64,000 nucleotides of DNA from Maricaulis sp. (GTDB taxonomy: Bacteria; Pseudomonadota; Alphaproteobacteria; Caulobacterales; Maricaulaceae). The notes beneath the pieces were generated by a model, which was given only the letters and a program-made list of their open reading frames with translations, had not been told where the DNA came from and did no database searches. The stretch covers positions 12,487-76,486 of the forward strand of contig NZ_JBLXIK010000009.1 of assembly GCF_048269565.1 (NCBI RefSeq). The letters are read 5' to 3'. Within the stretch, counting starts at the first letter, position 1; each line of letters opens with the position of its first letter. The translations under genes and the position numbers were made by a program. This document shows positions 31,807 to 54,503 of the stretch, piece by piece.

Positions 31807-31947
31807 GGGCAATGCTGTGTCCGACTGCGCAAATCACCCGAATGGGCGTTCCAAACCGGCCAAAAATTGCTACAAGCAGTGGCATTGATCAACTAGCTGA
31901 TCGGTCGTGAGCGCGGGTTGGCTCAAGTCTATTTCCGGGAGTTCGAA

Positions 31948-38774: not shown

Positions 38775-39512
38775 TTGGGTCAACCGGCCATTCAACTCGT
38801 GAGACGGGATATCCGCGCACAATATGCCGGATCGGGGCTCGGACTTTTCTGGGCCTTGCTCGAACCGCTCATCCTGGCCGGGGCGTTCATCTTTCTGCGC
38901 CATTCCGGCATGATCACGATCGGCGACATCACCTTGCCCTATGCGGTCTACGCCGTCACGAGCCTGATGGTGTGGCAGACCTGTGTCGACGGCATCAATG
39001 GCGGTCTCAATTCGATCACCCGGATGCGGCCATTGCTGAAGACGACCCAGGTGTCGGCTGGCTCGGTGGTCTCGGTCGTCATCCTGACTTCCTGCTTCTT
39101 CCATCTTTTCCGGCTCGTCGTCGCGCTCGGGGTGGCGATTGCCTTTGGCATCCATGACCCGGTCAATCTGCTCGCCTACGCCCTGTTTTCATTCCTGGCC
39201 CCGTTGTTCGGAGTCGCGATCGGCCTGTTGCTGGCGCCCTTCGCGGAGATATACCGGGATCTCAAGATTCTGGTTTCCTCTGCTCTGCGCCCGCTTCTCT
39301 TCGTGTCCGGCGTCATCATCCCCATCCCGGCCCAGTTCGGATTTCTGGGGATTTACAATCCCATCGCCGTGGCCATTTCCACCGCCCGTGATGCGCTTGT
39401 CGGCGTGGGGCGGGTGGATTACGTTCTGGCCGGGCTCTGGCTCGCCATCATGATCATTGTGTTCGCAGTCGCGCTTTTCGTCTTCCGGCGTACACTCAGA
39501 ATTGTCCTGTGA
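38775..39512 (+). CDS. wzm: ABC-2 type polysaccharide export permease (Wzm/KpsM-like)
   Basis: 245 aa. VRRDIRAQYAGSGLGLFWALLEPLILAGAFIFL is the ABC-2 N-terminal signature, followed by about 6 TM segments. Only TTG (38775) or GTG (38799) starts are possible after an in-frame TGA. Confidence 0.8.
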   Translation: MGQPAIQLVRRDIRAQYAGSGLGLFWALLEPLILAGAFIFLRHSGMITIGDITLPYAVYAVTSLMVWQTCVDGINGGLNSITRMRPLLKTTQVSAGSVVSVVILTSCFFHLFRLVVALGVAIAFGIHDPVNLLAYALFSFLAPLFGVAIGLLLAPFAEIYRDLKILVSSALRPLLFVSGVIIPIPAQFGFLGIYNPIAVAISTARDALVGVGRVDYVLAGLWLAIMIIVFAVALFVFRRTLRIVL

Positions 39513-39524
39513 GATCCTCCCGAT

Positions 39525-40988
39525 ATGCCGATCATTTCTGCCACTGGAATATCCAAGAAATATTCCCTTCGAGACCAGCAAACACGCCGCCGCGGCCTGG
39601 GCGCCCTGTTCCGCGAGATTGTCGGTCCGACTGAGGGCGACTCGGCATCGGTCGCGCTGTCCGAGGGGGAGTTCTGGGCCCTGCGCGATGTCGATCTGAC
39701 GGTGTCCGATGGCGAGACGCTGGGCGTGATCGGCCTCAACGGTGCCGGCAAGACGACGCTGATGAGCCTGCTGGCCGGCGTGATCAAGCCGGACACGGGC
39801 AGTGTCGTGCACAATGGTGATGTGCAGGCTGTGCTGAGCCTCGGGGCCGGCATCAACCAGAAACTGACCGGGCGCCAGAACGCCGAAAGCGGTGTCGCCC
39901 TGCGGGCGAGTTCCATCGAACAGCGTGAGGAAATGATCGCGCGAATCGAGGAATTTTCCGAACTCGGCGAATTCTTCGACAGTCCGGTCGGCTATTATTC
40001 CAGCGGCATGAAGGCGCGGCTCGGTTTTGCCATCTGTATCAGCGCCACGCCGCAGGCGATCCTGATTGATGAAGCGCTCTCGGTCGGGGACGCGTCCTTC
40101 AAGCAGAAATGCCTGCTCTATCTTGAGCAATTGCGCCGCCGCGGTGTCGGCATGGTGATGGTGTCCCATTCCATGACCTCGATCCGGCAGTTCTGCGATT
40201 CCGCGATCTGGGTCCATGACGGCCAGATCCGCGCGCGCGGATCGAGCGGCGAAGTCGTGCATGAATATCTCCAGTTTGTGGAGCAAAGGCAGACCAGCTC
40301 GCTGGCAACGCCCGCGCCTGCCAGGGATGGCAATGCCGCACCGGTTGCCCGCAGCGGCACGCGGGCCGAGCCGGCGGGCAGCAAGATCAAGAGCGTCATG
40401 GGAACGGCGTTCAACGCGGTGGACCGCCGGCCGTCCGTGCGGGCGCTCGGTCCGGTGGAGCGTGAACTGCATCTCTCGGGACAGCCCGGTGAGTGGATCC
40501 GGCCGGAAATCACTGCGACCGAGGTGAATGAATTATACGGGCGCCAACGCCCGGAACCCGGTGTCGCCGAATTCTCCGCCGCACTGCTGGTCAATGGCCA
40601 GCCCACAAACGAGGTGTGGCCGCATGAGAGCATGGAGATCGAGTATCGCTTCCGGCTGGCTGAGCCCGTCGGCAATCTCAACGTTTCGCTGGTGTTTCAC
40701 AAGGAAGGCAGCGGCCGCCTCGCGACCATCTCGACCCTGAACCAGGACTTGCTCAAGGACCAGAGCGAGGCCGGGGTGGTGCATTGCCGGGTGAGGATCC
40801 CGGACATGGTGCTCGCGCCGGGCAATTATGTCGTCACCATCTCGATCCATGACGGCAAGCCCTATCTGTGGCGGGATGTGATCCTGACTTTCCGCGTGCG
40901 GACCTCCGAATTGCTCACCTGGGGCGATATCAACCTGCCTTACAGCTATGAGGTCTATTCGACCATCGACGAAGCCGATGTCGAATAG
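39525..40988 (+). CDS. wzt: Polysaccharide ABC-exporter ATPase with C-terminal glycan-binding-type domain (Wzt-like)
   Basis: 487 aa. Walker A GLNGAGKTTL, signature YSSGMKARL, Walker B ILIDEALSVGD. After a Pro/Ala-rich linker comes a beta-rich domain of about 170 aa (ESMEIEYRFRL...LNVSLVFH...APGNYVVTISIHDG). It resembles my recollection of Wzt C-terminal domains in length and pattern. Confidence 0.85.
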   Translation: MPIISATGISKKYSLRDQQTRRRGLGALFREIVGPTEGDSASVALSEGEFWALRDVDLTVSDGETLGVIGLNGAGKTTLMSLLAGVIKPDTGSVVHNGDVQAVLSLGAGINQKLTGRQNAESGVALRASSIEQREEMIARIEEFSELGEFFDSPVGYYSSGMKARLGFAICISATPQAILIDEALSVGDASFKQKCLLYLEQLRRRGVGMVMVSHSMTSIRQFCDSAIWVHDGQIRARGSSGEVVHEYLQFVEQRQTSSLATPAPARDGNAAPVARSGTRAEPAGSKIKSVMGTAFNAVDRRPSVRALGPVERELHLSGQPGEWIRPEITATEVNELYGRQRPEPGVAEFSAALLVNGQPTNEVWPHESMEIEYRFRLAEPVGNLNVSLVFHKEGSGRLATISTLNQDLLKDQSEAGVVHCRVRIPDMVLAPGNYVVTISIHDGKPYLWRDVILTFRVRTSELLTWGDINLPYSYEVYSTIDEADVE

Positions 40989-41027: not shown

Positions 41028-42242
41028 GTGAAACTGCTCGTGTTGTCCCATGCCGCAGATCGGACCGGCGCGCCGCGGAGCGCGTTGCTGCTGGCCCGGG
41101 AATGGGCCGCGATGGGGCTTGATGTCGAAATCCTGCTGCGCCGGGATGGCGTTCTTAGGCCCGCATTCGAGGCTGTGGCGCCCACCGCGATTTACCGGGG
41201 GCGGCCGGAATTCGGCCCGGGGGACGTCCTTCCTCTCCTGCGCGATTACGATCCTGGCATGGCTTTGAAGTGCCTGCGTAATCCTGACCGGCCCTATTGC
41301 CTCTCCCGCAACGAACGGCGGGATGCCGCCGCGCTGGCCGCTCGCTATCGCGCCTGGGGCGCGCAGGCGATCTATGCCAACACCTCGCACTGCGCCGATA
41401 TGATCGAGCCTCTGGGTCTCGATTTGCCGGTCCTGACCCATGTCCGGGAGATGGCGCCCAGTCTCCGGGCGTTGGACCCCCGCCGGCGCGCCCATCTCCT
41501 CCATGGCGATGGCCCGGTGTTGGCGGTGTCCGAACGTGGCCGGGCCGACCTGGCGGAAATCGGTGTGGCCGCATCGCGCCTCGGGGTCGAGCCGCCGGCC
41601 GCCGCGGTGCCAGATCTTCAGGCGCTGGAGCGGCAACGCGACCGTGTCGAGCAGCAATTTGGCCTGGCGCCGGGCGACCGCCTGGTGGTCGGGGCCGGCA
41701 CGGTTGGTCCGCGCAAGGGTCCCGACCTGTTCATTGAAAGTCTCGGGCGAGCGATTGAAGCCGCACCTGCCGGCGAACGCATTGCCGGCCTCTGGCTTGG
41801 TGAGGGCGAGTGGCTGGATCCTTGCCGCGACCGCATCAAGGCGGCCGGGCTGGGCGATGCCGTCAGCTTCCCCGGGGCGATGGCGGATATCGCGCCGGTC
41901 CTGTACCGCGCCGACCTGCTGCTCTGCACCTCGCGCGAGGATCCTTATCCACGCGTGGTAATCGAGGCTGCCCTGGCGGGCACGCGGAGCGTCGCCTTCG
42001 CGGCGACCGGCGGCGCCGAGGAGTTCATCACCCGGTTCGATGCCGGCTCGCTGGTGCCCGCCTTTGATACCGGGGCCATGGCTGCCGCGATCACGACCGT
42101 GCTCAAGCGGCCGCACCGGTGTGACGCCGGCCTTGCCGCGCGCGTCGCTGCCGAACGCTCGGTCGAGCGCAGCGCCCGGCGCATTCTCGACCGGCTGCAG
42201 ATGCTGACAGGAGAGGCCAATGCCACGTCTGCTGATTCATAG
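41028..42242 (+). CDS. Glycosyltransferase, GT-B fold (GT4-like)
   Basis: GTG at 41028 lies 6 nt after GGGGAG (TTG at 41025 is also possible). VKLLVLSHAADRTGAPRSALLLA... N-domain. C-domain: LLLCTSREDPYPRVVIEAALAGTRSVAFAATGGAEEFI. Confidence 0.8.
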   Translation: MKLLVLSHAADRTGAPRSALLLAREWAAMGLDVEILLRRDGVLRPAFEAVAPTAIYRGRPEFGPGDVLPLLRDYDPGMALKCLRNPDRPYCLSRNERRDAAALAARYRAWGAQAIYANTSHCADMIEPLGLDLPVLTHVREMAPSLRALDPRRRAHLLHGDGPVLAVSERGRADLAEIGVAASRLGVEPPAAAVPDLQALERQRDRVEQQFGLAPGDRLVVGAGTVGPRKGPDLFIESLGRAIEAAPAGERIAGLWLGEGEWLDPCRDRIKAAGLGDAVSFPGAMADIAPVLYRADLLLCTSREDPYPRVVIEAALAGTRSVAFAATGGAEEFITRFDAGSLVPAFDTGAMAAAITTVLKRPHRCDAGLAARVAAERSVERSARRILDRLQMLTGEANATSADS

Positions 42243-42921
42243 CACGCCCGACACGCTGGCCAGTGCTGCGGCCGACGAGATCGTCCGGGCCGTGAACCGG
42301 CATGCCGGGCGGCGCTTCAATCTGGCGCTGTCGGGCGGGTCGACGCCGCCGCTGATCTTTCGCCGGTTGCGCCGTTTGCTTGAACGCCGGCTGCCCGTCG
42401 ACCGCCTGCGCCTGTTCTGGATTGACGAGCGCTGTGTGCCGATCGGCCACCCCGACAGCAATGCCGGCAGTGCCCGCCGCCATCTCGGGCGCATCTGGAA
42501 TGGCGCTGATGTCCGCGCAATGTCGGGCACGGTCCCGCCGCAGGCCGGCGCTGCCGCCTATGCCCGGCGCCTGGCGTATTTTGGCGGCGCTCAGGCTTTC
42601 GACATGGCGCTGGTGGGGCTGGGGCCAGACGGACATGTCGCCTCGCTCTTTCCCGGCTCTGACGCGCTGGATGCGAGCGGGACCGTGACAGTGGGTCAGT
42701 CGCCACGCGGTGATCAACGATTGTCGGTGACGCTCGACGTGCTGCGGGCAACGCGATCCCTGCTGGTGGTGGCGTGCGGTGAGTCGAAGGCCTGGGCCGT
42801 GCGCGAGGCCCTTACCGGGCCGGTGCTTTGCCCGTTCGCGCGCGCCTGCGCCGGTCGGCCGAGCGTCCAGATCCATGTCGACGCCGCCTGTGCCCGGGCA
42901 TTGGGCCGGCGCGGGTCATAA
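42220..42921 (+). CDS. 6-phosphogluconolactonase / NagB-fold sugar-phosphate isomerase-deaminase family protein
   Basis: 233 aa. FNLALSGGSTPPLIFRRL...WIDERCVP...ALVGLGPDGHVASLFPG is the Pgl/DevB signature. RBS GGAGAGG. The start overlaps the preceding GT gene by 23 nt. Confidence 0.7.
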   Translation: MPRLLIHSTPDTLASAAADEIVRAVNRHAGRRFNLALSGGSTPPLIFRRLRRLLERRLPVDRLRLFWIDERCVPIGHPDSNAGSARRHLGRIWNGADVRAMSGTVPPQAGAAAYARRLAYFGGAQAFDMALVGLGPDGHVASLFPGSDALDASGTVTVGQSPRGDQRLSVTLDVLRATRSLLVVACGESKAWAVREALTGPVLCPFARACAGRPSVQIHVDAACARALGRRGS

Positions 42922-43030: not shown

Positions 43031-43762
43031 ATGGCTAGCACGGGGGGCGTCAAGAACTACTATGTGTTCACGACACACAAAGCGGCGTCGAGATTTATTG
43101 ATGCCCTGATGAGGGACATCGCAATTGGAACTGGATTGGAGCTGCATGCCCCCAAACATCCGGGATTTCCACGCGAGAAAGAACTCGAGCGCGATCCAAG
43201 CAAGCTGACAGTAACCGGTTTGATCGGAACTTTGCGATACGCGTTCATGCCGCTGGACTGGGAAGATTCACATATCATGCTGCACCTGCGAGATCCGCGG
43301 GACGTGCTGGTGTCATTGTATTTCTCCCACAAATACTCCCACCGGCGGAGCAGTGAGGGCTTCAACCCTTCCTCTGACTCTTTGAATGAGTTGGACAAGG
43401 GGATTGATAACTACGTTATGTTCAGGGCGCCCCAGTATCTGGAGCGGTACAACTTCTATATCGAGAATATGCTCGGCAAGGAGAATGTGACCTTCTCGCG
43501 CTATGAGGACATGGTCATGGACTTCGAGGGCTGGTTGCCCCGTTTCCTCGAGCCCTATCCGCTGCGCAACCGCAAGGGTTTCATTGCCAAGCAGATGAAG
43601 AAGCGCGCGGCGCAGTTCGAGCTCGATGGCAGTGAGGATGTCACGGCGCACAAGCGCAAGGCCGTGCCGGGTGACCACAAGGAAAAGCTGGAGCCGGCGA
43701 CGATCGAGGCGCTGAACAAGATGTTCGCGGGGCCGCTCGCCAGCCTGCAATACGAAGTCTGA
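43031..43762 (+). CDS. PAPS-dependent sulfotransferase (Sulfotransfer_1/3-like)
   Basis: 243 aa. VFTTHKAASRF lies at the position of the 5'-PSB loop, and LRDPRDVLVSLYFS is a 3'-PB-type motif (RDPRD..VS). RBS GGAGAA. GC is clearly lower than in the flanks. Confidence 0.7.
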   Translation: MASTGGVKNYYVFTTHKAASRFIDALMRDIAIGTGLELHAPKHPGFPREKELERDPSKLTVTGLIGTLRYAFMPLDWEDSHIMLHLRDPRDVLVSLYFSHKYSHRRSSEGFNPSSDSLNELDKGIDNYVMFRAPQYLERYNFYIENMLGKENVTFSRYEDMVMDFEGWLPRFLEPYPLRNRKGFIAKQMKKRAAQFELDGSEDVTAHKRKAVPGDHKEKLEPATIEALNKMFAGPLASLQYEV

Positions 43763-43921
43763 CGGGCGCCGCACCCGGCTTGCTGCGGGGCATCCTGTAA
43801 TGGAATACCGGGTGGCTGCCCTGTGCGCCGGCCGCCCGGACGTGAAGTGGGAGTGCGCCCCGGCCGGACTTGCGCCGGGCCGGGGCGCCACCCTTTCCGA
43901 TCAGGCACCAGGGGGATACAG

Positions 43922-44620
43922 ATGAGCGTTGATGGCGAATACCTTTACCTTTTCAACCACATTCCAAAAACAGCCGGGACGGCGTTCAAGAAGTTCATCC
44001 TGAAGAATGTGGGTGAACAGCGCTTTCTGGACATCATCCATCCGGACAAGGCGAAGATCGACGAGACCCTGGCGGTCACGAATACCGGCGAGCTGAGCTG
44101 GATTTGCGCCAATTTTCACAAGAACCAGATCGAGGGGCTGCGCCAGTCTGACGGCCGGCCGTTGAAAATCGTTACCATGCTGCGTCACCCGGTTCAGCGC
44201 GGCATGTCGCTGTACCGCTTTGTCCGCAACAAGAAGTCCCACGCCCTGTACGAGACCATCTCGCGCATGGATATCCTGGACTTTGCGCGTGACGACGCGC
44301 TCGACCGGCAATTGTCGGAATATTACACGCGGCGCTTTGGCGGTGGTTCGATTGAGGCGGCGACGGCATTCCTCGAACAGGACAAGCTGGTGGTCGGGAT
44401 CACCGAAGAGATGAACGCGACGATGGCGGCGATCGCCGAGGCGACGGGTTTCGCCCAGCTTGAAGTCCCGCGCGCGAATGTTTCAAAGGAGTTTTCCGAA
44501 TTCGATGTCGACGGTGAGCGTGTCGCCGAGGCCACGCGGATCCTGACCGAAAAGAACCGGCTGGATATCGAGCTGTATGATCGTTACCGCGATGCCCTGT
44601 TGGCGTCTGTAGTTTCATAA
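43922..44620 (+). CDS. Sulfotransferase family 2-like protein
   Basis: ATG at 43922 after GGGGGA. LFNHIPKTAGTAFKKFI (the HIPKTAGT PAPS loop) and MLRHPVQRGMSLYRF (RHP..R..S.Y) are the family-2 sulfotransferase hallmarks. Confidence 0.7.
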   Translation: MSVDGEYLYLFNHIPKTAGTAFKKFILKNVGEQRFLDIIHPDKAKIDETLAVTNTGELSWICANFHKNQIEGLRQSDGRPLKIVTMLRHPVQRGMSLYRFVRNKKSHALYETISRMDILDFARDDALDRQLSEYYTRRFGGGSIEAATAFLEQDKLVVGITEEMNATMAAIAEATGFAQLEVPRANVSKEFSEFDVDGERVAEATRILTEKNRLDIELYDRYRDALLASVVS

Positions 44621-44770: not shown

Positions 44771-44950
44771 ATGAGCTTTGAACCAAACGGTCTGGGTTGC
44801 CCGGAAGCCGTCGCCTATGCCCTGATGCTTCACATGGCCGCCGTTGAAGGCGTGTCGCTGTCCGGTGGCGAAAACTCCGCCAGCAAGAAGTGGATCATGA
44901 ATACCTACGCCAAGTGCCTCGAGCTCGTGAAGCAGCAGCCTGCGTCCTGA
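44771..44950 (+). CDS. Possible small protein (59 aa), unknown function
   Basis: Below the ORF-track cutoff and read by hand: MSFEPNGLGCPEAVAYALMLHMAAVEGVSLSGGENSASKKWIMNTYAKCLELVKQQPAS*. ATG lies 6 nt after GAGAGGAAAA. It sits in an otherwise empty 440-bp gap. The tracked antisense ORF 44678-44953 looks spurious. Confidence 0.35.
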   Translation: MSFEPNGLGCPEAVAYALMLHMAAVEGVSLSGGENSASKKWIMNTYAKCLELVKQQPAS

Positions 44951-45060: not shown

Positions 45061-45744
45061 GTGACTATCATTGCCATGATCCCGGCCCGGATGGGCAGCC
45101 AGCGGCTCAAGAAGAAGAACCTTGCGCCGCTGGCCGGCATCCCGCTGATCCGCCGTGCGGTCCGGCGCTGCCAGGCGGCCGGTTGTTTCGACCGGATCGT
45201 CGTCAATTCCGAAAATGTGGAATTTCGTGAGCATGCGCTTGCGGAAGGCGCCGAATTTCACCAGCGCCCGGACTGGCTCGGCGGCCATGACGCTACCAGC
45301 GAGGACTTCGTTGGCGAATTCATGCGCGCCCATTCCTGCGATCGTGTCTACCAGGTTCATTCGATCGCACCGCTCGCATCGGCCGATCATATCCGCCGCT
45401 TCGTCGAATATGGCGAGAGTGGCGAGCTGGACACGGTCCTCAGCTGCGTCGAGGAACAGATCGAGTGTGCCATGGGTGGCGAGCCGGTCAATTTCACCTT
45501 CGACTCCAAGACCAATTCCCAGGAATTGCCGCCACTGCAGCGCATCACCTGGAGCCTGACCAGCTGGACCCCGTCGGTTTTCCTCGAAGCGCAGGACGCC
45601 GGGCGCTGCGCCACCTATGCCGGCCGCGTCGGGATAATGCCCTTGGATCGCTGGTCCGGGCATGTCATCAAGACACAACAAGACTTGGATATCGCGGAAG
45701 CCCTGCTGAGCCATCTCGGAGACGGCCCGCAATTCGGTGGCTGA
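45061..45744 (+). CDS. Acylneuraminate/KDO-type cytidylyltransferase family protein (CTP_transf_3; NeuA/KdsB-like)
   Basis: 227 aa. IIAMIPARMGSQRLKKKNLAPLAGIPLIRRAV is the N-terminal CTP-binding signature of CMP-ulosonate synthetases. GTG start. Confidence 0.8.
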   Translation: MTIIAMIPARMGSQRLKKKNLAPLAGIPLIRRAVRRCQAAGCFDRIVVNSENVEFREHALAEGAEFHQRPDWLGGHDATSEDFVGEFMRAHSCDRVYQVHSIAPLASADHIRRFVEYGESGELDTVLSCVEEQIECAMGGEPVNFTFDSKTNSQELPPLQRITWSLTSWTPSVFLEAQDAGRCATYAGRVGIMPLDRWSGHVIKTQQDLDIAEALLSHLGDGPQFGG

Positions 45745-45787
45745 ACGGGCGATCGCCCGTCGCGTCACATTCCAGAAGGACAGGATA

Positions 45788-46822
45788 ATGGTGTTGAAGA
45801 TCGGGGTCGTCGGATTCGGCAAGATGGGGCGAATCCGCAAGGCGACGCTTGATGCGCGCAGTGATGCGCGCGTTGTGGCGCTGGCCGATCCCTATGCCGA
45901 TATGTCGGACCAGCCGGGCATGATCCGGCATACCGACTGGGAAAAACTCCTGGAAGAAGACATTGATGCGGTTGTCATCAGCTGCACCAATGAGCTGATC
46001 CCGACCGTGGCCGTCGCCGCCCTGGCCAAGGGGCTCCACGTCTTCTGCGAGAAGCCGCCGGGGCGCAACCCGCAGGATGTCTACCGCATTCGCGAAGCCG
46101 CACAGCAGCATCCGGAACTGATGGTGAAGTTCGGTTTCAACCATCGCTATCATGAATCCGTCGAACAGGCGCGGCGGCTGGTGTCGTCGCAGAGCCTTGG
46201 CAAAATCCTGTGGATGCGCGGTGTCTACGGCAAGGCCGGCGGCCCGGAATTTGACAAGAACTGGCGCAATGTGCCGAGCCGCTCCGGTGGCGGCATCCTG
46301 CTCGACCAGGGCATTCACATGATCGACCTGTTCCATGATTTCTGTGGGACCTTCAGCGAAGTGAAGAGCTTCGTCACCAGCCAGTACTGGAACATTCCGG
46401 TCGAGGACAATGCCTTCGCCCTGCTGCGCAATGACCAGGGCCAGGTCGGCGTTATCCACTCTTCGGCGACGCAATGGCGCCACACCTTCCGGCTCGAGAT
46501 CTTCCTCGAAAAGGGCTTTTTGACGCTTGAGGGAATCCTGTCCTCGACCATGAGCTACGGCAAGGAAACCCTGATCGTCGCGCGCAACACCATGGACGAG
46601 AACGGCTATCCACTGCCCAATCCCGAAGAGGTGATCAGCTTTTTCGCCGATGACCGCTCTTGGGAAAAGGAAATGACCGAATTCGTCACCTGCGCCCTGG
46701 CCGGCGAACCGGTGCGGATCGGCACGGTGCAGCAGGCGGTCGATGCCATGGAAACGGTGTTTGCCATCTACGGCGCTGACAATAGCTGGACCCAGTCTGA
46801 CGAAAGCGAGCAATCGGCATGA
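45788..46822 (+). CDS. Gfo/Idh/MocA family NAD(P)-dependent oxidoreductase
   Basis: ATG at 45788 after AAGGACAGGA. LKIGVVGFGKMGR Rossmann start and the FCEKPP motif typical of the family. Confidence 0.8.
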   Translation: MVLKIGVVGFGKMGRIRKATLDARSDARVVALADPYADMSDQPGMIRHTDWEKLLEEDIDAVVISCTNELIPTVAVAALAKGLHVFCEKPPGRNPQDVYRIREAAQQHPELMVKFGFNHRYHESVEQARRLVSSQSLGKILWMRGVYGKAGGPEFDKNWRNVPSRSGGGILLDQGIHMIDLFHDFCGTFSEVKSFVTSQYWNIPVEDNAFALLRNDQGQVGVIHSSATQWRHTFRLEIFLEKGFLTLEGILSSTMSYGKETLIVARNTMDENGYPLPNPEEVISFFADDRSWEKEMTEFVTCALAGEPVRIGTVQQAVDAMETVFAIYGADNSWTQSDESEQSA

Positions 46823-47823
46823 AAACCTCGGTCCTGATTGATGAAATGCGCCTCGCCGAAGTGCGTCCCGACCAGGTCTCGAAACGCTACGAGGAATTGC
46901 GCCGGGCCGAAGCGGCGCATTTGCTGCAGAACCCGTCGACACGCTGGGTCGGCCGCGCCAATCCGACCCGGAGCTGCAAGCCGGAACCGGCTTTCATGTC
47001 CGACGGTCTGAGCTTCCATCATTGCCCCGACAGCGGTTCGCTGTTCGCCTCGCCGGTACCGGTGCAGGACGAGCTCGACCGGCTGGCCCGCGATGGTGAG
47101 GCCGCGCGCTGGCGCCGTGATTATTTCGGTCATCGCTTCTCGGAAAAACAGCGCCAGTCGATCCATGCGCCGATCGTGCGCTGGGCCCAGGAAGTCATTG
47201 ATGAATACGGTCTCGAGGCGCCGCGTACCGCTCTGGTCGGCAATGACGAGACGGGACTGGCCAGCTCGCTCAGCGCCATGGGCCGGCTCGGCGAGATGGT
47301 GCTGACCGAGCGCGTCTCCGGTCAGCCTGCGCCGGAGGGCACGGTTGAAAGGCCGGTTGCCGAACTCGGCGCCGCGTCCTTCGATCTCGTCTTTGACATG
47401 GGCTCGCTGGAACGGGTGTCCGACCCGGAACGCCGTTTCGCCCTCTGGTCGGAACTGGTCACGCCCGGCGGCTTCCTCGCCTTCACCACCAGCATGGCCA
47501 GCGGGCTGGAATATCGTGTGCTCGGCCCGAAAGCGGCCAGCTTTATCGCGCTCGACCGGCTGACGCTGTATTCGGTGCCGGCGCTGATGGAACAGCTCGC
47601 GGCGCACGGCTTTGAAGTCGTTGAATTCTCAACGCCGGGCCGGCTCGATGTCGAAGTCCTGACCCAGGCCTTCGCCGACGGGGCTCCAGCCGACAATCCG
47701 CTCGATTTCTGGACCCACGCGCTCAAGCATGGCGGCGAGGACTTCAAGACCGACCTGCAGCGCCTGCTGCAGCGTCACCGTTTCTCATCCTTCGCGCGTG
47801 TGCTCGCGCGCCGGGTTACCTGA
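46819..47823 (+). CDS. Class I SAM-dependent methyltransferase-like protein
   Basis: 334 aa. The C-terminal half has FDLVFDMGSLERVSDPERRFALWSELVTPGGFLAFTT (Methyltransf_11/23-like post-I/II motifs). The N-terminal half was not recognised. A 4-nt overlap links it to the upstream gene. Confidence 0.55.
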   Translation: MKTSVLIDEMRLAEVRPDQVSKRYEELRRAEAAHLLQNPSTRWVGRANPTRSCKPEPAFMSDGLSFHHCPDSGSLFASPVPVQDELDRLARDGEAARWRRDYFGHRFSEKQRQSIHAPIVRWAQEVIDEYGLEAPRTALVGNDETGLASSLSAMGRLGEMVLTERVSGQPAPEGTVERPVAELGAASFDLVFDMGSLERVSDPERRFALWSELVTPGGFLAFTTSMASGLEYRVLGPKAASFIALDRLTLYSVPALMEQLAAHGFEVVEFSTPGRLDVEVLTQAFADGAPADNPLDFWTHALKHGGEDFKTDLQRLLQRHRFSSFARVLARRVT

Positions 47824-47855
47824 TCCATCATTCTATCTGAAGGCAGTAGCATCTC

Positions 47856-48770
47856 ATGACAAAAGGCAAGATCCTCATCGGCCCCTCGAGCTATGGCGAG
47901 GCGAGCCCGGCGCCCGTGGAACTGCTGCGTTCGGCGGGATATGAAGTGATCGATAATCCGTTCAAGCGCCGTCTGACCCGCGAGGAATTGCTCGAGCTCC
48001 TGCCCGGCATCACCGGCCTGATCGCCGGCCTCGAGCCGCTCGACCGGCCGGTGCTGGAAAAGTCCGATCTCAAGGCCCTGGCCCGCGTCGGTTCGGGCAT
48101 GTCCAATGTCGACATGCCGGCGGCGGAAAGCCTGGGCATCCACGTTTCGAACACGCCGAACGGTCCGGTTCTCGCTGTTGCCGAACTGACGGTCGGCTGT
48201 CTGATGAACCTCTTGCGCCAGACCTCGGCCATGGACCGCGCCATGCGCGCCGGCGGCTGGGACAAGCGCATGGGCCGCCAGTTGCGCGACCTGACCATCG
48301 CCATCGTCGGCTATGGCCGTATCGGCCGCCAGACCGGCGATCTGTTCACCGCGCTCGGTGCCAGGATTCAGATTGTCGACCCCTTCGTCGACCCGTCGAC
48401 CGTGTCGGCGCCGGTGGTCACGCTCGAACAGGCGCTGGCCGAAGCCGATGCCATCTCCCTGCATGCCAGCGGCGAGACCTGCATCATCGATGCGGCGGCC
48501 TTTGCGGCGATGAAGCCGGGCATGTACCTGCTCAATGTCGCCCGCGGCGAGCTGCTTGATTATGACGCGCTGTTTGCGGCACTCGATGATGGCCGCGTCG
48601 CCGGTATCTGGGCCGACGCCCACCCGCAGGAGCCCTATAAGGGCGATCTGCTCAAATACGACCAGGCCCTGCTGACGCCGCATGTCGGCTCCTACTCGCT
48701 GGAGGGGCGCATCAAGATGGAAATGGATGCGGCCGAGAACCTGCTCGCCGATCTCGGCAAGGCCTCCTGA
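47856..48770 (+). CDS. D-isomer-specific 2-hydroxyacid dehydrogenase (phosphoglycerate-dehydrogenase-like)
   Basis: IAIVGYGRIGRQTGDLFTALGARI NAD motif, followed by LLNVARGELLD and the PHVGS catalytic His region. Confidence 0.8.
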   Translation: MTKGKILIGPSSYGEASPAPVELLRSAGYEVIDNPFKRRLTREELLELLPGITGLIAGLEPLDRPVLEKSDLKALARVGSGMSNVDMPAAESLGIHVSNTPNGPVLAVAELTVGCLMNLLRQTSAMDRAMRAGGWDKRMGRQLRDLTIAIVGYGRIGRQTGDLFTALGARIQIVDPFVDPSTVSAPVVTLEQALAEADAISLHASGETCIIDAAAFAAMKPGMYLLNVARGELLDYDALFAALDDGRVAGIWADAHPQEPYKGDLLKYDQALLTPHVGSYSLEGRIKMEMDAAENLLADLGKAS

Positions 48771-49525
48771 TGGCGGATCTCGCCGAACTGCGCGCCGTGC
48801 TGGTGGCGGCCGAGGATGCGGCCCGCGCCGCTGGCCAGGCCCTGCGCGATGGCGGCGGCGATTTCGAGGGCGTCGAGCGCTCGGAAGGCCGGGACATCAA
48901 GCTCAATGCCGACCGCGCGGCCGAACGCATCATCATCGACCGGCTCACCGCTCTGGTGCCGGCGCCGATCCTGTCCGAGGAAACCGGCTGGACCGCGGCG
49001 GCGGGCGACAAGGTCTGGGTCGTCGATCCGCTGGACGGTTCGGCCAATTACAATCGCGATATTGCCCTGTGCAGTGTCTCGATCGCCTGGGTCGAGAACG
49101 GGCGTCCGGTCGCCGGTGTCATCTATGAATTCCTCAGCGAGCGCCTCTATAGCGGCGCCGTCGGGCTGGGGGCCTGGTTGAATGGCAAGCCGATGAGTGT
49201 CGCCGATCACACGCGGACCGAGGACTCGATCCTGTTTACCGGCCTGGCGATCAACCGGGATTTCAGCGCGCAGGCGCTGGGGGATTTCGCAGCCGGTTTC
49301 GCGCGCTGGAAGAAGGTGCGGATGATCGGTTCGGCGGCAACATCGCTGGCCTATGTCGCGCGCGGTGCCGCCGATGCCTATTTCGAGGACTCGATCATGT
49401 TCTGGGACGTCGCAGCCGGCTGTGCCCTGGTCGAGGCCGCTGGTGGCCGCTTCTCCATCGCCGGAGACTCAATGGACATGCCCGTTTGTGTGCATGCGGA
49501 CAATGGCAAGCTCTGGACGCTCTGA
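48770..49525 (+). CDS. Inositol-monophosphatase-fold sugar/acid phosphatase
   Basis: SEETG...WVVDPLDGSANY...WDVAAG are IMPase motifs. TGATG overlap with the upstream dehydrogenase gene. Confidence 0.8.
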   Translation: MADLAELRAVLVAAEDAARAAGQALRDGGGDFEGVERSEGRDIKLNADRAAERIIIDRLTALVPAPILSEETGWTAAAGDKVWVVDPLDGSANYNRDIALCSVSIAWVENGRPVAGVIYEFLSERLYSGAVGLGAWLNGKPMSVADHTRTEDSILFTGLAINRDFSAQALGDFAAGFARWKKVRMIGSAATSLAYVARGAADAYFEDSIMFWDVAAGCALVEAAGGRFSIAGDSMDMPVCVHADNGKLWTL

Positions 49526-50297
49526 CCCGGCCGCCATCGCGCAGGCGCTGGGCGCGGCGCGGGCCGCAGGCCAGGCGTTTGACCCGCTGACACGTTTCGG
49601 ACCGCTCAGCCTGGAAGCCGGTTATGCGATCGCGGCCCTTCGCTGTGATCCTGCTCAGGCGGCGGCCTACAAGCTCGGCGGCACGACCGGGGCGACGCGC
49701 ACGGCGTTCGCGGTTTCGCGGGCCTATGCCGGGGCGCTGTGCGCCGATCAATTGATCAAGGACGGCCAGGACCTGCCGACGGGCCTGATCAATCCGGTGG
49801 TGGAGCCGGAAATTCTGCTCGCCTTTGACCGCCCCTTCGCGCCGCAGCGCGCCGCCCGCAGCGTCCAGGCGCTGCGCGACGAACTGGCCTGGGTCGGGAT
49901 CGCGCTGGAAGTGCCCGCCACCCCCGTCAGCGGCCTGCCGCAAACCGGGGTCGGCTGGCTGCTCGCCGATTGCTGTGCCGCCGGCGCCCTGGTGGTCGGC
50001 GAACAGCTGTCGCCAGCGCATCTCGACACCCTGTCGCAGGCGCGGGTCACACTGCAGGTCGGCACGCGGACATCACAGGGCGAGGCCTCGCGGCTGCTTG
50101 ATGGCGCGCTTGGCGCGATGTCCGACATCCTGGCGGTGTTCGGGCAATTGGGCTGGGCCGTGCCGGCGGGCATTCCTTTTGCAACCGGCGGGCTGGCCCC
50201 GGCGCTGCCGATTGGCGCGGGCGAGACGGTGCAGGCCGGCTTTGCCGGTCCGGGGATTGAGTTGTCGATATCGACCCGCCTGTGCGAAGAAGGCTGA
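49503..50297 (+). CDS. Possible FAH-fold 2-keto-4-enoate hydratase/decarboxylase-like protein (MhpD/HpcG-like)
   Basis: About 264 aa from the ATG at 49503, overlapping the upstream gene by 23 nt. AGYAIAA...AYKLGGTTGATR...PVVEPEILLAF...ATGGL loosely follows the hydratase family pattern as I remember it. This is the weakest call in the block. Confidence 0.4.
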   Translation: MASSGRSDPAAIAQALGAARAAGQAFDPLTRFGPLSLEAGYAIAALRCDPAQAAAYKLGGTTGATRTAFAVSRAYAGALCADQLIKDGQDLPTGLINPVVEPEILLAFDRPFAPQRAARSVQALRDELAWVGIALEVPATPVSGLPQTGVGWLLADCCAAGALVVGEQLSPAHLDTLSQARVTLQVGTRTSQGEASRLLDGALGAMSDILAVFGQLGWAVPAGIPFATGGLAPALPIGAGETVQAGFAGPGIELSISTRLCEEG

Positions 50298-50332: not shown

Positions 50333-52153
50333 ATGTGCGGAATTGTTGGCGTAACCGGTAACCCCGATGCCCGGGACATCCTGATGGAAGGCCTCCATCG
50401 GCTCGAGTACCGGGGCTATGACTCCGCCGGTGTGGCAATGATGGACGCGGCGGGCACGGTGCGGCGCGCCCGCGCGGCCGGCAAGGTGTCCAACCTCGCC
50501 TCCGAGCTGACCGGCGAGATCGTCGGCTGCACCGGCATCGCCCACACCCGCTGGGCCACTCATGGCGCCGCCACCCGCGACAATGCCCATCCGCACACCG
50601 CCGGCCGGGTGACGCTGGTACACAATGGCATCATCGAAAACTACAAGACGCTGCGCGCGGATCTCGCAGCCCGCGGCCGGGTGTTCGCGAGCGAGACGGA
50701 TACCGAGGTGCTCGCCCACCTGCTCGACGCGGCCCTGGCCGATGGCGCCGACCCGCGCACCGCCCTGCTGTCCACCGTCGCCAAGCTGGAGGGCGCCTTT
50801 GCCTTCGCAGCCATCATTGATGGCGAGCCCGACCTGCTGCTCGGGGCCTGCCGCGGCGCGCCGCTGATTGCGGCCATCGGTCCGTCCAGCGGCTTTCTCG
50901 CCTCCGACATCATGGCGATTACCGGCGCTGCACACTCCGTGGTCTATCTCAATGTCGGCGATGCCGTCATCGTGCGCCCGGACCAGGTCGAGGTCTTCGA
51001 TGTTTCGGGACAGCCGGTCAAACGGCCGGCGACCGTGGCGCCGACCTCGCTGGTGCTCGCCGAGAAGGGCAATTATCGCCACTTCATGCAGAAGGAAATC
51101 TACGAACAGCCGGAAGTCGTCGGCCATACGCTCAGCGCGTATCTGGACCCGGTCGCCGGTCAGGTTCGTCCCCGGGACGGGATTGATTTCGCGGCCGCCT
51201 CGCGCCTGCTGATCGTCGGTTGCGGCACCGCCTCCTATGCCGGCCAGATCGCCGAATACTGGTTTGAGGGCCTGGCGGGAATGCCGGTCGAGGTCGATAT
51301 CGCCTCGGAATTCCGCTACCGCAAACCGGCCTTCATGCCCAATGACATGGCGCTCTTCATCTCCCAGTCCGGCGAGACCGCCGACACGCTTGAAGCGATG
51401 CGGATGTGCAAGGCCGCCGGGCTGACGACCGTCGTGCTGGTCAATTCGCCGCTGTCGACCATGGCGCGTGAGGCTGATATCGTTGCGCCGACCATGGCCG
51501 GACCCGAGATCGGCGTCGCCTCGACCAAGGCCTTCACCTGTCAGCTCGCCTCGCTCGCGGCGCTCGCTGTGCTCGCCGGCGTCCAGCGCGGCCGTATCGA
51601 TGCCGCCGACCAGGCCAGCCATGTCAGCCGGCTGATGGGCGTGCCGGGTCTGATGGCGCTAGCGCTGCGGATCGAGGACCAGATCAATCACCTCGCTGGC
51701 GAGCTGTCACAGGCGTCGATCGTGCTTTATCTCGGCCGCAATGAATTTTTCCCGATGGCGCTGGAAGGTGCCCTGAAACTCAAGGAAATCAGCTATATCC
51801 ACGCCGAGGGCTATGCCGCCGGCGAGCTCAAGCACGGCCCCATCGCGCTGATCGAGGACGACGTCGCGGTGGTCGTGATCGCACCCTATGACGAGCTTTT
51901 CATCAAGACCCGCTCCTCGATCCAGGAAGTGCGCGCCCGCGGTGCCCGCGTCATCGCCATCACCGACCCGCGCGGTGCCGCCGAACTCGAGGGCGAGGCG
52001 AGCGCCATCATCACCCTGCCGCAAGCCGAAGGCCTGGCGGCCCCGCTGGTTGCGGCGGTGGCGGTGCAATTGCTGGCCTATTATGTCGCCGTCCACAAAG
52101 GCACCGATGTCGACCAGCCGCGCAATCTGGCGAAATCGGTGACGGTAGAATAG
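50333..52153 (+). CDS. glmS: Glutamine--fructose-6-phosphate aminotransferase
   Basis: MCGIVGV... with the N-terminal Cys nucleophile, two SIS domains and the C-terminal ...NLAKSVTVE typical of GlmS. Confidence 0.95.
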   Translation: MCGIVGVTGNPDARDILMEGLHRLEYRGYDSAGVAMMDAAGTVRRARAAGKVSNLASELTGEIVGCTGIAHTRWATHGAATRDNAHPHTAGRVTLVHNGIIENYKTLRADLAARGRVFASETDTEVLAHLLDAALADGADPRTALLSTVAKLEGAFAFAAIIDGEPDLLLGACRGAPLIAAIGPSSGFLASDIMAITGAAHSVVYLNVGDAVIVRPDQVEVFDVSGQPVKRPATVAPTSLVLAEKGNYRHFMQKEIYEQPEVVGHTLSAYLDPVAGQVRPRDGIDFAAASRLLIVGCGTASYAGQIAEYWFEGLAGMPVEVDIASEFRYRKPAFMPNDMALFISQSGETADTLEAMRMCKAAGLTTVVLVNSPLSTMAREADIVAPTMAGPEIGVASTKAFTCQLASLAALAVLAGVQRGRIDAADQASHVSRLMGVPGLMALALRIEDQINHLAGELSQASIVLYLGRNEFFPMALEGALKLKEISYIHAEGYAAGELKHGPIALIEDDVAVVVIAPYDELFIKTRSSIQEVRARGARVIAITDPRGAAELEGEASAIITLPQAEGLAAPLVAAVAVQLLAYYVAVHKGTDVDQPRNLAKSVTVE

Positions 52154-53531: not shown

Positions 53532-54503
53532 ATGATGAGTACGATCCAGGAGAGCGTCCGCGCCTACGCGAAGCGATTTCAGAGCGCCCGTCACCGGGAA
53601 CGTCCGCTTTCGGCTCACCTCAAGGCCCTCGAATCCGAGAGCATGCACATCATGCGTGAGGTCGCGGCCGAGTTTGACCGTCCGGTGATGCTCTACTCAG
53701 TTGGCAAGGATTCGGCCGTCATGCTGCATCTGGCGATGAAGGCCTTCTACCCCTCCCTGCCGCCTTTCCCGCTGCAGCATGTCGACAGCACGTTCAAGTT
53801 CCGCGACATGATCGCGTTTCGCGATGCCATTGCCGCGGAACTCGGTCTGGAAATCCGCGTCGAGATCAATGAGGAGGGGGTCGAACGCGGCATCAATCCC
53901 TTCGACCATGGCTCCAATCTGCACACCCAGGTGATGAAGACCGAGGCGCTGCGCGCCGCCATGAACCGGCACAAATATGATGCGGCCTTCGGCGGTGCCC
54001 GCCGCGACGAGGAAAAATCGCGCGCCAAGGAACGGATTTTCTCCTTCCGTGACGGCAATCATGGCTGGGATCCGAAGAACCAGCGGCCCGAGCTCTGGCG
54101 CAATTACAATACCAAGATCAAGCAGGGGGAATCGATCCGCGTCTTCCCGCTGTCCAACTGGACCGAGCTCGATATCTGGCAGTACATCCTCGAGGAAGAA
54201 ATCCCGATCGTGCCGCTGTATTTCGCGGCGCACCGCCCGGTCGTCGAACGCGATGGCCAGCTGATCATGGTCGATGACGAGCGCCTGCCGCTCGCCGACG
54301 GCGAGACGCCGGAGCTGCGGCTTGTGCGTTTCCGCACCCTGGGCTGCTATCCCCTGACCGGTGCCGTTGAATCCGGTGCCACGACGCTTGAGGAAATCGT
54401 GATCGAAATGCTCACGGCGCGGACCTCCGAACGGTCCGGCCGCCTGATCGATCATGACGAGTCCGGGTCGATGGAGAAGAAGAAGCGGGAGGGCTATTTC
54501 TGA
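53532..54503 (+). CDS. cysD: Sulfate adenylyltransferase subunit 2
   Basis: [39 protein letters not shown] (PP-loop SxGKDS) and the C-terminal ...[10 protein letters not shown] typical of CysD. RBS GTGAGGA. Confidence 0.9.

Follow-up and report, generated by a model that had tools for sequence, protein, structure and literature searches.

A six-gene operon at positions 45061 to 50297 of a 64-kb stretch of Maricaulis sp. DNA (the whole stretch is called the window below) encodes a relative of the cytidylyltransferases that activate ulosonic acids with cytidine monophosphate (CMP), together with two dehydrogenases, a phosphatase and two further proteins. With moderate to good confidence, these six genes form the core of a self-contained nucleotide-sugar cassette that also includes a sugar-phosphate isomerase gene (starting at 31918), an MptE-like gene (32573) and a Pgl-type lactonase gene (42220) elsewhere in the window. 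With the same confidence, the cassette has no synthase of the KdsA/NeuB type as a partner. It may well make a CMP-activated 2-ulosonic (2-keto aldonic) acid through the oxidation of a sugar phosphate, and not by aldol condensation with phosphoenolpyruvate (PEP), a reading to which we give about an even chance. The specific chemistry of the route, each step of which was read from gene content, is held with moderate confidence only.

Operon structure and conservation of the cassette

An open reading frame (ORF) listing and frame-specific GC content gave six co-directional ORFs on the plus strand between 45061 and 50297, with coding-type GC content at third codon positions (GC3) of 0.75 to 0.83 across all six:

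45061-45744, plus strand, NeuA-like cytidylyltransferase (CT); Pfam CTP_transf_3
45788-46822, plus strand, Gfo/Idh/MocA NAD(P) oxidoreductase (Gfo); three Pfam domains
46819-47823, plus strand, protein with a class I methyltransferase fold (MT-like); weak match to Methyltransf_23
47856-48770, plus strand, D-isomer-specific 2-hydroxyacid dehydrogenase (HAD2); Pfam 2-Hacid_dh and 2-Hacid_dh_C
48770-49525, plus strand, IMPase-family phosphatase (IMPase); Pfam Inositol_P
49503-50297, plus strand, FAH-like protein of the MhpD/HpcG/NahK type; family profile match to 1SV6

Pfam or NCBIfam families were assigned to five of the genes, and the FAH-like gene was placed by a profile of its homologues. The initial annotation of this DNA had described six tightly coupled plus-strand genes, some of which overlap in their start and stop codons, and the ORFs, their coordinates and the overlaps were all confirmed. 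The Gfo/MT-like junction is an ATGA overlap, the HAD2/IMPase junction is a TGATG overlap, the IMPase and FAH-like genes overlap by 23 nt, and the remaining gaps are 32 to 43 nt. The Gfo gene probably starts at ATG 45788, which has an AAGGA ribosome-binding site, and not at GTG 45737. Marine biofilm metatranscriptome contigs, in which DNA carry-over is possible, span CT, MT-like, the MT-like/HAD2 junction, HAD2 and FAH-like. A scan for promoters and terminators returned nothing exceeding shuffled expectation.

The 440-nt gap 5' of CT holds a 59-amino-acid ORF (44771-44950, plus strand) with a good ribosome-binding site and a GC3 of 0.75. It is 83 to 93% identical to its counterparts in three other Maricaulis loci (L003, L004 and L007), is spanned by a metatranscriptome contig and has no Pfam match. 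A regulatory or leader function is possible for this small protein.

To our knowledge, all known CMP-activated sugars (Kdo [3-deoxy-D-manno-octulosonate], sialic, pseudaminic and legionaminic acids, and ketodeoxynononic acid [Kdn]) are made by PEP condensation of the KdsA/NeuB type. Genome mining for CMP-activated sugars relies on a synthase of this type, and a cassette that lacks one would therefore escape current searches. In order to search for a synthase, N. meningitidis NeuB and E. coli KdsA were used as probes after validation against PDB entries 1XUU (789 bits) and 1D9E (631 bits), to which they are essentially identical. No homologue of either was found by tblastn in the window (best E, 0.39 to 1.1), in agreement with the initial annotation. 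Among 80 related loci, NeuB was found in none and KdsA in one (L063, 8 kb from CT), which leaves 79 of the 80 with neither. The accompanying premise, that CMP-activation genes normally come with their synthase, was too strong, in that E. coli capsule loci have kpsF/kpsU without kdsA (PMC13171606).

The related loci came from a scan of one genome per species, which returned 210 species-level genomes with a relative of CT; 80 loci were fetched. Co-occurrence with CT was scored by tblastn over the 60 loci of at least 15 kb and by all-against-all ORF clustering over 79 nonredundant loci:

HAD2: 54/60 by tblastn, 60/79 by clustering
Gfo: 51/60 by tblastn, 52/79 by clustering
IMPase: 47/60 by tblastn, 52/79 by clustering
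MptE-like: 41/60 by tblastn, 32/79 by clustering (small and large forms together)
SIS_2 isomerase: 37/60 by tblastn, 40/79 by clustering
FAH-like: 26/60 by tblastn, 32/79 by clustering
MT-like: 20/60 by tblastn, 25/79 by clustering
Pgl-type lactonase: 10/60 by tblastn, 9/79 by clustering
SMP-30 lactonase: not in the tblastn probe set, 9/79 by clustering
DUF386/YhcH: not in the tblastn probe set, 15/79 by clustering

The clustering supports the tblastn counts and adds two recurrent families from outside the window, DUF386/YhcH and SMP-30 gluconolactonase. HAD2 is the most constant partner of CT: of the 60 loci with HAD2, 33 have it directly next to CT on the same strand. In 39 loci CT, HAD2, Gfo and IMPase are no more than 6 kb apart. 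The smallest version is a HAD2-DUF386-CT trio in a Hydrogenedentota locus (L062); according to the cluster table, four more Hydrogenedentota loci have HAD2, DUF386 and CT without Gfo or IMPase.

The cassette spans at least eight phyla, with representatives in Alpha-, Beta-, Gamma- and Deltaproteobacteria, Planctomycetota, Verrucomicrobiota, Lentisphaerota, Hydrogenedentota, Chloroflexota, Nitrospirota and Bacteroidota. In two distant contexts, a 3.7-Mb Terasakiella contig and Alterinioella, CT is accompanied by 2-Hacid_dh, Gfo/Idh/MocA, IMPase, SIS_2, MptE-like and Glucosamine_iso (Pgl/NagB) genes and by an unannotated gene of about 250 codons. By tblastn these neighbours are homologous to genes of the window, including the distant SIS_2 (31918) and MptE-like (32573) genes. 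The cassette is also present on a Leisingera plasmid and on a megaplasmid of S. fredii SMH12, where the order is HAD2-Gfo-SIS_2-FAH-IMPase-CT and the cassette adjoins genes of the KpsC/KpsS family (PF05159). Proteins of this family (GT107) transfer ulosonic acids from CMP donors (PMC13171606). A large multidomain glycosyltransferase gene, absent from the window, adjoins the cassette in L083 (962-5047) and in more than 20 other loci (e.g., L002, L005, L040, L054 and L073); the N-terminal domain of its product is GT4-like, and in some loci there is a C-terminal domain of the Capsule_synth/GT107-like kind.

Existing annotations of the cassette proteins are generic ("NTP transferase domain-containing," "MptE-like" or "hypothetical"). 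A full-text literature search on the gene combination, on hept- and hex-2-ulosonic acids and on DUF115 returned no description of the cassette or of its product.

Assignment of the cassette proteins

CT matches CTP_transf_3 (PF02348) with 65.2 bits against a cut-off of 22.6, over profile positions 1 to 120 of 217 only, the N-terminal half. The CTP-binding loop in this half (IPARxGSxxxxxKN) reads IPARMGSQRLKKKNL and aligns with IPARGGSKRIPRKNI of NeuA; R10, G12, S13, K19 and N20 are invariant in the family. There are 1744 homologues of CT, which share 56 to 65% identity across phyla (92% with the CT of M. salignorans). The family profile aligns with PDB entries for NeuA over residues 1 to 131 only (E, 5e-23) and more weakly with KdsB, and HMMER aligned residues 132 to 227 with no solved NeuA or KdsB. 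An AlphaFold2 model of CT (pLDDT, 87.3) matches 1EYR, 6IFD, 9FTC, 9T4Z and 1QWJ with TM scores of 0.75 to 0.78 over about 225 columns. Its best matches are the synthetases for CMP-N-acetylneuraminic acid (CMP-Neu5Ac), CMP-pseudaminic acid (CMP-Pse) and CMP-Kdn, with KdsB at 0.60 to 0.72 and IspD at 0.65 to 0.70. The modelled fold is that of a CMP-nonulosonate synthetase, closest to the NeuA type.

The scores of CT in the KdsB, PseF and NeuA equivalog models are 28 to 54 bits, all far under cut-offs of 155 to 281 (PseF, 54 bits against 205.7; KdsB models, 28 to 45 bits against 155 to 281). These scores and the ranking of folds rule out that CT is simply the housekeeping KdsB, an outcome that the initial annotation had allowed for. 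CT is proposed to be a CMP-ulosonate synthetase of a distinct, conserved subfamily. Residues 200 to 216 of CT contain an invariant Lys204 and Asp208 (GHVIKTxxDLxIAEAL), at the position where NeuA enzymes have the metal-binding DxD; Lys204 might take the place of catalytic Asp residues.

Gfo matches its three Pfam domains with 56.7, 61.4 and 90.1 bits and contains the EKP (CEKPPG) and GGG..D.G.H motifs. Its best NCBIfam match is inositol 2-dehydrogenase (IolG equivalog, 103.5 bits against a cut-off of 355), and its nearest PDB entries are glycoside/levoglucosan 3-dehydrogenases and inositol dehydrogenases, with E values of 1e-20 or weaker. A role as aldose(-phosphate) 1-dehydrogenase is proposed, with a regiochemistry that homology does not fix. 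HAD2 matches 2-Hacid_dh_C (139.6 bits) and 2-Hacid_dh (66.8 bits), and the catalytic Arg, Glu and His positions are present in its translation (ARG...QEP...TPHVG). In both NCBIfam and the PDB it matches phosphoglycerate dehydrogenases (PGDH) of the short type best (PGDH equivalog, 167 bits against 454). HAD2 is a candidate aldonate(-phosphate) 2-dehydrogenase that would produce the 2-keto acid.

IMPase matches Inositol_P with 176 bits and carries the metal motifs DPxDG and WDxAAG (VDPLDGS and WDVAAG in the translation). It falls under the SuhB, CysQ and HisN equivalog cut-offs, scoring 100 bits in the CysQ model and 104 in the IMPase model. It is proposed to be a ulosonate-phosphate (or aldose-phosphate) phosphatase, a functional analogue of KdsC. 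Identity with CysQ was ruled out, as IMPase accompanies CT in loci without sulfation genes; matches to the sulfotransferases of the window occur in 4 of 82 loci, three of them Maricaulis and the fourth L061 (25% identity to the sulfotransferase ST2).

Three cassette genes lie apart from the operon:

31918-32517, plus strand, GmhA-like sugar-phosphate isomerase (SIS_2); Pfam SIS_2
32573-33454, plus strand, MptE-like/DUF115 protein; Pfam MptE-like (PF01973), 42 bits against a cut-off of 34.6
42220-42921, plus strand, Pgl-type lactonase; TIGR01198, 136.4 bits against 124.45, and Pfam Glucosamine_iso, 166.7 bits

The first two had been noted before, as a SIS gene at 31948 and a DUF115 gene with a GNGPSL motif at 32573, and both are real. 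The suggestion that their products and the IMPase-fold enzyme belong to one pathway with CT held up as well, in that all three co-occur with CT in loci without sulfation genes. SIS_2 is 54 to 62% identical to its cassette homologues. It scores 74.5 bits in the GmhA equivalog (TIGR00441; cut-off, 209.45), and 13 of its 15 best PDB matches are GmhA, the last two being DiaA. It retains the phosphate loop SxSGxSPN and the His, with Asp in place of the Glu. It is proposed to isomerize a ketose phosphate to an aldose phosphate.

The GNGPSL motif of the MptE-like protein is invariant. With Foldseek, its AlphaFold2 model (pLDDT, 92.7) matches 5MU5, a Maf glycosyltransferase, best (E, 2e-5; probability, 1.0; TMq, 0.49), with archaeal HPPK next and then the CMP-dependent sialyltransferases of families GT29 and GT42. 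A role as CMP-ulosonate transferase is proposed. Homologues of the Pgl-type lactonase lie inside the cassette in L001, L002, L005, L006, L024 and L040. The Pgl type is found in nine loci and the window and the unrelated SMP-30 lactonase in nine loci, all Roseobacter, with no locus having both; the two may be non-homologous replacements.

As a single sequence the FAH-like protein has no Pfam match and a weak NCBIfam match to MhpD, and its best score among the MhpD, HpaH, DmpE and DmpH equivalogs is 37.5 bits against a cut-off of 350. A word-indexed protein search gave six matches, and profiles were built from the fetched loci. The profile of 17 sequences (alignment A2) matches MhpD (1SV6) over its full length, positions 1 to 257, with an E value of 1.3e-40. 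K57, E101, E103 and E136 are invariant in the family and align with the Lys and ExE...E positions of MhpD. By these alignments, the FAH-like protein is a real enzyme of the MhpD type that binds Mg2+ and a 2-oxo acid.

The possibility that this ORF is non-coding, raised in the initial annotation, was ruled out by its GC3 of 0.80, homologues in 32 further loci, the MhpD profile match (E, 1e-40) and a metatranscriptome contig. The gene is found in 32 of the 79 loci, all of them proteobacterial, and is absent from 47, including every non-proteobacterial locus. SIS_2 and IMPase are its immediate neighbours on either side in the typical proteobacterial cassette, where it stands two genes upstream of CT. 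The description of the protein as a weakly FAH-like hydratase is upheld in that it belongs to the MhpD family; its restriction to these loci argues that it does not form the 3-deoxy-2-ulosonate. An accessory tailoring step on the 2-keto acid is proposed, which would be an epimerization, a tautomerization or a dehydration at C4.

DUF386/YhcH, of which the window has no copy, is found in 15 of the 79 loci, all outside the Proteobacteria (PVC group, Hydrogenedentota, Nitrospirota and Desulfobacterota), and the protein is related to N-acetylneuraminate anomerase (75 bits). No locus has both the FAH-like protein and DUF386 (Fisher P = 2e-4, uncorrected for phylogeny). Because the two are mutually exclusive and both families handle 2-oxo or ulosonic acids, each may stand in for the other in an accessory step on the free keto acid, the two then being non-homologous replacements.

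The window copy of the MT-like protein matches Methyltransf_23 with 25.6 bits, just under the cut-off of 27, and 16 of 16 family members match this model (best E, 1.4e-14). The family profile aligns with UbiG over the C-terminal half only. In the family alignment (A3) the glycine-rich motif I for S-adenosylmethionine (SAM) is not conserved. The N terminus is a zinc-ribbon remnant, the Cys ribbon being degenerate in the Maricaulis copy. The gene, found in 25 of the 79 loci, had been read as a SAM methyltransferase. The fold stands, but use of SAM is doubtful, and the protein is better regarded as a probable accessory protein with a class I methyltransferase fold.

A possible oxidative route and its rivals

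Several observations constrain what the cassette could make. CT has the modelled fold of a CMP-ulosonate synthetase, and its most constant neighbour comes from a family whose members turn 2-hydroxy acids into 2-oxo acids and back. At either end of the pathway stand a sugar-phosphate isomerase and a phosphatase, the places that KdsD and KdsC have in the route to Kdo. The constant partners HAD2, Gfo and IMPase, together with two lactonase families, suggest an oxidative route from aldose to aldonate to 2-keto-aldonate. The recruitment of two unrelated lactonase families points to an aldonolactone intermediate, which among the cassette members could be produced only by Gfo.

The route would begin with the GmhA-like SIS_2, which would turn a ketose phosphate from central metabolism into an aldose phosphate. 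Sedoheptulose-7-phosphate is the best guess for the starting sugar because SIS_2 resembles GmhA, and fructose-6-phosphate is possible. Gfo would then oxidize C1 to give the aldonolactone, which would be opened by the Pgl-type lactonase, by SMP-30 in Roseobacters and perhaps by spontaneous hydrolysis in other lineages. The PGDH-like HAD2 would oxidize the C2 hydroxyl to yield a 2-keto-aldonate phosphate, a step for which the action of PdxB on 4-phosphoerythronate and 2-ketogluconate-6-phosphate reductase are precedents. The IMPase-family enzyme would strip the phosphate in place of KdsC. In Proteobacteria the MhpD-like enzyme might next act on the free 2-oxo acid, by enolization or C3 epimerization, or by C4 dehydration to a 4-deoxy acid. 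In other phyla the YhcH/NanQ-like DUF386 protein might act instead, supply of the anomer or tautomer being among its suggested roles. The NeuA-like CT would form the CMP-sugar, and the MptE/Maf-like protein would move the sugar acid onto a polysaccharide that is sulfated and exported by Wzm/Wzt, where it might cap the chain; the transferase of S. fredii and others would probably be a GT107-like protein. The net result would be conversion of a 2-ketose into the matching 2-ulosonic acid, a product that retains its 3-hydroxyl, in contrast to Kdo and the sialic acids.

In its most specific form this proposal is tentative. The cassette could represent a third, oxidative route, free of PEP and aldolase, from a ketose of the sedoheptulose-7-phosphate type to its 1-carboxy analogue, e.g., a hept-2-ulosonic acid with a 3-hydroxyl. 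This acid would be a new class of surface sugar in at least eight phyla, handled by Maf- or GT107-like transferases. A non-3-deoxy 2-ulosonic acid has a precedent in the E. coli K3 capsule, which has 4-deoxy-2-hexulosonic acid according to the citation of Dengler 1988 in PMC10433991.

Several points weigh against the oxidative route. The search for a synthase covered the window and the related loci, and a housekeeping KdsA elsewhere in the genome is possible. SIS_2 falls under the GmhA cut-off and has Asp for Glu, which makes the starting sugar a guess. The closest solved relatives of Gfo oxidize ring carbons (e.g., C3 of glycosides or C2 of inositol) in place of C1. A lactonase was detected in no more than 18 of the 79 loci, and SMP-30 lactonases usually take unphosphorylated lactones, which makes the position of the phosphatase step ambiguous. 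Some loci show CT, HAD2 and DUF386 alone, so that the pathway may do without Gfo, IMPase and SIS_2 or have their genes at another place. Finally, we know of no polysaccharide with a 3-hydroxy hept- or hex-2-ulosonic acid from carriers of the cassette.

The most serious rival, in itself unlikely, is that a housekeeping KdsA supplies Kdo-8-phosphate and that the cassette boosts or modifies Kdo, CT then activating a modified form ("Kdx"). SIS_2 would be an arabinose-5-phosphate isomerase, IMPase a substitute for KdsC, and the dehydrogenases epimerizing or oxidizing tailoring enzymes. It ranks first because capsule loci carry the CMP-Kdo genes kpsF/kpsU with no kdsA (PMC13171606), and it is further favored by the Kdo-like "Kdx" sugars typical of Sinorhizobium K antigens (PMC4881576). 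The KpsC/S-like genes next to the S. fredii cassette and the KdsA found 8 kb from CT in one locus (L063) point the same way. However, CT is NeuA-like and not KdsB-like both by score and by fold, the SIS protein is of the GmhA type (SIS_2) and not of the KdsD type, and HAD2 and the two lactonase families have no obvious role in Kdo tailoring. The cassette is also present in metagenome-assembled genomes of Chloroflexota (Anaerolineae), a phylum that is not known to have lipopolysaccharide. A link to Kdn through S. fredii was considered and dropped: the 5-O-methyl-Kdn polymer belongs to a derivative of HH103, not to SMH12, and no SMH12 capsule structure was found.

It is equally improbable that the FAH-like enzyme is the founding step. 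On this explanation the FAH-fold enzyme would hydrate a 2-keto-4-enoate to a 4-hydroxy-2-keto-3-deoxy acid, or would dehydrate a 2-keto-aldonate at C4 with Gfo reducing the resulting 2,3-diketone; the latter would lead to a 4-deoxy-2-ulosonic acid as in K3. The protein is a true member of the MhpD family with a conserved catalytic Lys and metal triad, its gene sits between SIS_2 and IMPase, two genes 5' of CT, in the typical proteobacterial cassette, and 4-deoxy-2-hexulosonic acid exists in nature (as cited in PMC10433991). Yet the gene is missing from 47 of the 79 loci, including all non-proteobacterial ones, while CT stays 56 to 65% identical. This distribution suggests a lineage-specific accessory and not the founding step. 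Moreover, no cassette enzyme would supply a 2-keto-4-enoate. The 3-deoxy route centered on this enzyme that the initial annotation had put forward is not supported, since the FAH-like gene is limited to 32 of the 79 loci, all in Proteobacteria, and the constant partners of CT are HAD2, Gfo and IMPase. A 4-deoxy variant in Proteobacteria is possible.

Nor was the cassette traced to E. coli K3. No E. coli match came from a blastn search of genomes with a gammaproteobacterial cassette, a method of low sensitivity for sequences this divergent, or from a tblastn search of plasmids, and two capsule-typing papers assign no K3 locus. The K3 sugar stands as a chemical precedent only.

A third explanation, which we regard as very unlikely, places the cassette in cyclitol or polyol-phosphate metabolism. 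IMPase and an IolG-like dehydrogenase would act on inositol (phosphate), or CT would make a product like CDP-glucitol, CDP-ribitol or CDP-inositol. The best NCBIfam match of Gfo (inositol 2-dehydrogenase, about 103 bits against 355), the IMPase family of the phosphatase and the match of the CT model to IspD-type structures (TM, 0.65 to 0.70) are in keeping with it. However, no inositol-1-phosphate synthase family appeared among the clustered recurrent neighbours, no search having been aimed at one. HAD2, the lactonases, the MhpD-like protein, DUF386 and a conserved phosphatase acting before activation do not fit. Known CDP-polyol cytidylyltransferases are of the PF01128/IspD type (PMC10918830), whereas CT matches PF02348 and NeuA structures first.

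That the genes are chance neighbours, with IMPase a CysQ-type phosphatase of 3'-phosphoadenosine 5'-phosphate for the sulfotransferases and HAD2 a SerA-like housekeeping enzyme, would suit a window in which sulfation genes abound (those for two sulfotransferases and a permease, with cysD and cysNC) and the near-equal CysQ and IMPase scores (100 and 104 bits), but is highly improbable given that dozens of loci from other phyla have the same gene set around CT, the presence of a match to either window sulfotransferase in only 4 of 82 loci, the overlapping start and stop codons, and a phyletic spread and divergence (25 to 60% identity) that argue against a single mobile element.

The polysaccharide locus and known pathways

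The operon is embedded in a polysaccharide locus of the ABC-transporter type, whose export genes are the following:

38775-40988, plus strand, Wzm and Wzt (with Wzt_C carbohydrate-binding domain); Pfam ABC2_membrane, ABC_tran and Wzt_C

The locus also encodes Gmd, GDP-fucose synthase and several GT4/GT1 glycosyltransferases and includes genes for the synthesis of 3'-phosphoadenosine 5'-phosphosulfate (PAPS); glmS, a DegT aminotransferase gene, cysD and cysNC lie downstream of the operon on the same strand. Wzm/Wzt homologues adjoin the cassette in several other loci, and in the window Wzm/Wzt is probably the export system of the polymer that receives the sugar acid. Based on the gene content of the locus, this polymer is probably a fucose-containing, O-acylated, sulfated O-antigen or capsule.

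A complete sulfation module flanks the operon (43031-44620, 53532-56398 and 57287-59095). It consists of Sulfotransfer_1 and Sulfotransfer_2 proteins, cysD, a gene in which cysN is fused to cysC, and a permease of the SLC13/CitMHS type that bears TrkA_C domains, and the polysaccharide of the window is probably sulfated. Within cysNC, one contig of DNA run X1 (a biofilm metagenome) joins 55311 to 55730, skipping 418 nt, which suggests a deletion variant in a related population. Directly 3' of the FAH-like gene is a full-length glmS (50333-52153, plus strand; 759 bits, well over the cut-off), followed by a PseC/DegT-type aminotransferase gene; the pair hints at an amino sugar in the polymer.

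Directly 5' of the SIS_2 and MptE-like genes, 28564-31806 (plus strand) encodes a protein of 1080 amino acids that has an FkbM methyltransferase domain at its C terminus and also matches TPR. A similar GT9+FkbM giant lies upstream of the cassette in Terasakiella (L001). The 1080-amino-acid protein could be an enzyme that terminates or caps chains in the Wzm/Wzt pathway. On the minus strand, 23097-25622 and 25695-28268 encode tandem paralogous fusions of AT3 (Acyl_transf_3) and SGNH domains, about 850 amino acids each, which are probably both O-acyltransferases of the polymer; this stretch has the strongest AT skew in the window.

If the oxidative route is correct, many marine and soil bacteria, among them Roseobacters, Maricaulis, Sinorhizobium, Planctomycetes, Verrucomicrobia and Hydrogenedentes, would decorate their surfaces with an unrecognized type of acidic sugar. 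In Maricaulis the sugar may be a terminal cap, read by the carbohydrate-binding domain of Wzt, on a sulfated O-polysaccharide. The cassette would be a candidate explanation for non-3-deoxy ulosonic acids like that of the E. coli K3 capsule, and would offer six to eight small soluble enzymes as well as new donor substrates for glycoengineering. What would set this CMP-sugar-acid pathway apart is how its acid is formed; neither the cassette nor its product was found described in any paper.

Among known systems, the pathway to CMP-Kdo (KdsD, KdsA, KdsC and KdsB; KpsF/KpsU) has the same outline of an isomerase, a phosphorylated 2-keto acid, a phosphatase, activation by CTP and transfer to an ABC-exported glycan, and its cytidylyltransferase shares the PF02348 family and fold with CT. 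In contrast, the cassette has no PEP aldolase of the KdsA type, its isomerase is of the GmhA type, its phosphatase has the IMPase and not the HAD fold, and CT is nearer to NeuA. The keto acid would arise through two oxidations and hence would not be 3-deoxy.

The CMP-nonulosonate pathways (NeuB/NeuA, PseI/PseF, LegI/LegF, and Kdn-9-phosphate synthase with CMP-Kdn synthetase; Maf/DUF115) are closer in their final steps. The CT model fits the CMP-Neu5Ac, CMP-Pse and CMP-Kdn synthetases best, the MptE-like protein is nearest to the flagellin nonulosonate transferase Maf and to sialyltransferases, and many loci have a YhcH/NanQ-like protein. The cassette differs in the lack of a NeuB-family synthase in 80 of 80 loci, in the scores of CT far under the PseF and NeuA equivalog thresholds, and in a core without the UDP- or GDP-sugar dehydratase, aminotransferase and acetyltransferase steps.

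For the FAH-like protein, the comparison is with MhpD, HpcG and NahK (2-oxopent-4-enoate hydratase and 4-oxalocrotonate decarboxylase), with which the family aligns over its full length, including the conserved Lys and Glu-x-Glu...Glu. Unlike these enzymes of meta-cleavage pathways, it occurs in the context of polysaccharide biosynthesis, has no meta-cleavage partner aldolase or dehydrogenase, and misses the equivalogs (37.5 against 350 bits).

Precedents for the proposed chemistry come from central and cofactor metabolism. Zwf and Pgl convert glucose-6-phosphate to 6-phosphogluconate, Epd and PdxB convert erythrose-4-phosphate to 4-phosphoerythronate and then to the 2-oxo acid, and 2-ketogluconate-6-phosphate reductase is a further example. 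The proposed sequence from aldose phosphate to aldonate phosphate to 2-oxo-aldonate phosphate is the same as in these reactions, and it likewise employs a Pgl-family lactonase and a member of the D-2-hydroxyacid dehydrogenases. However, these are catabolic or cofactor pathways, none of which feeds a nucleotide sugar, whereas in the cassette the C1 dehydrogenase would be a Gfo/Idh/MocA protein and the product would be activated with CMP and bound to a polymer.

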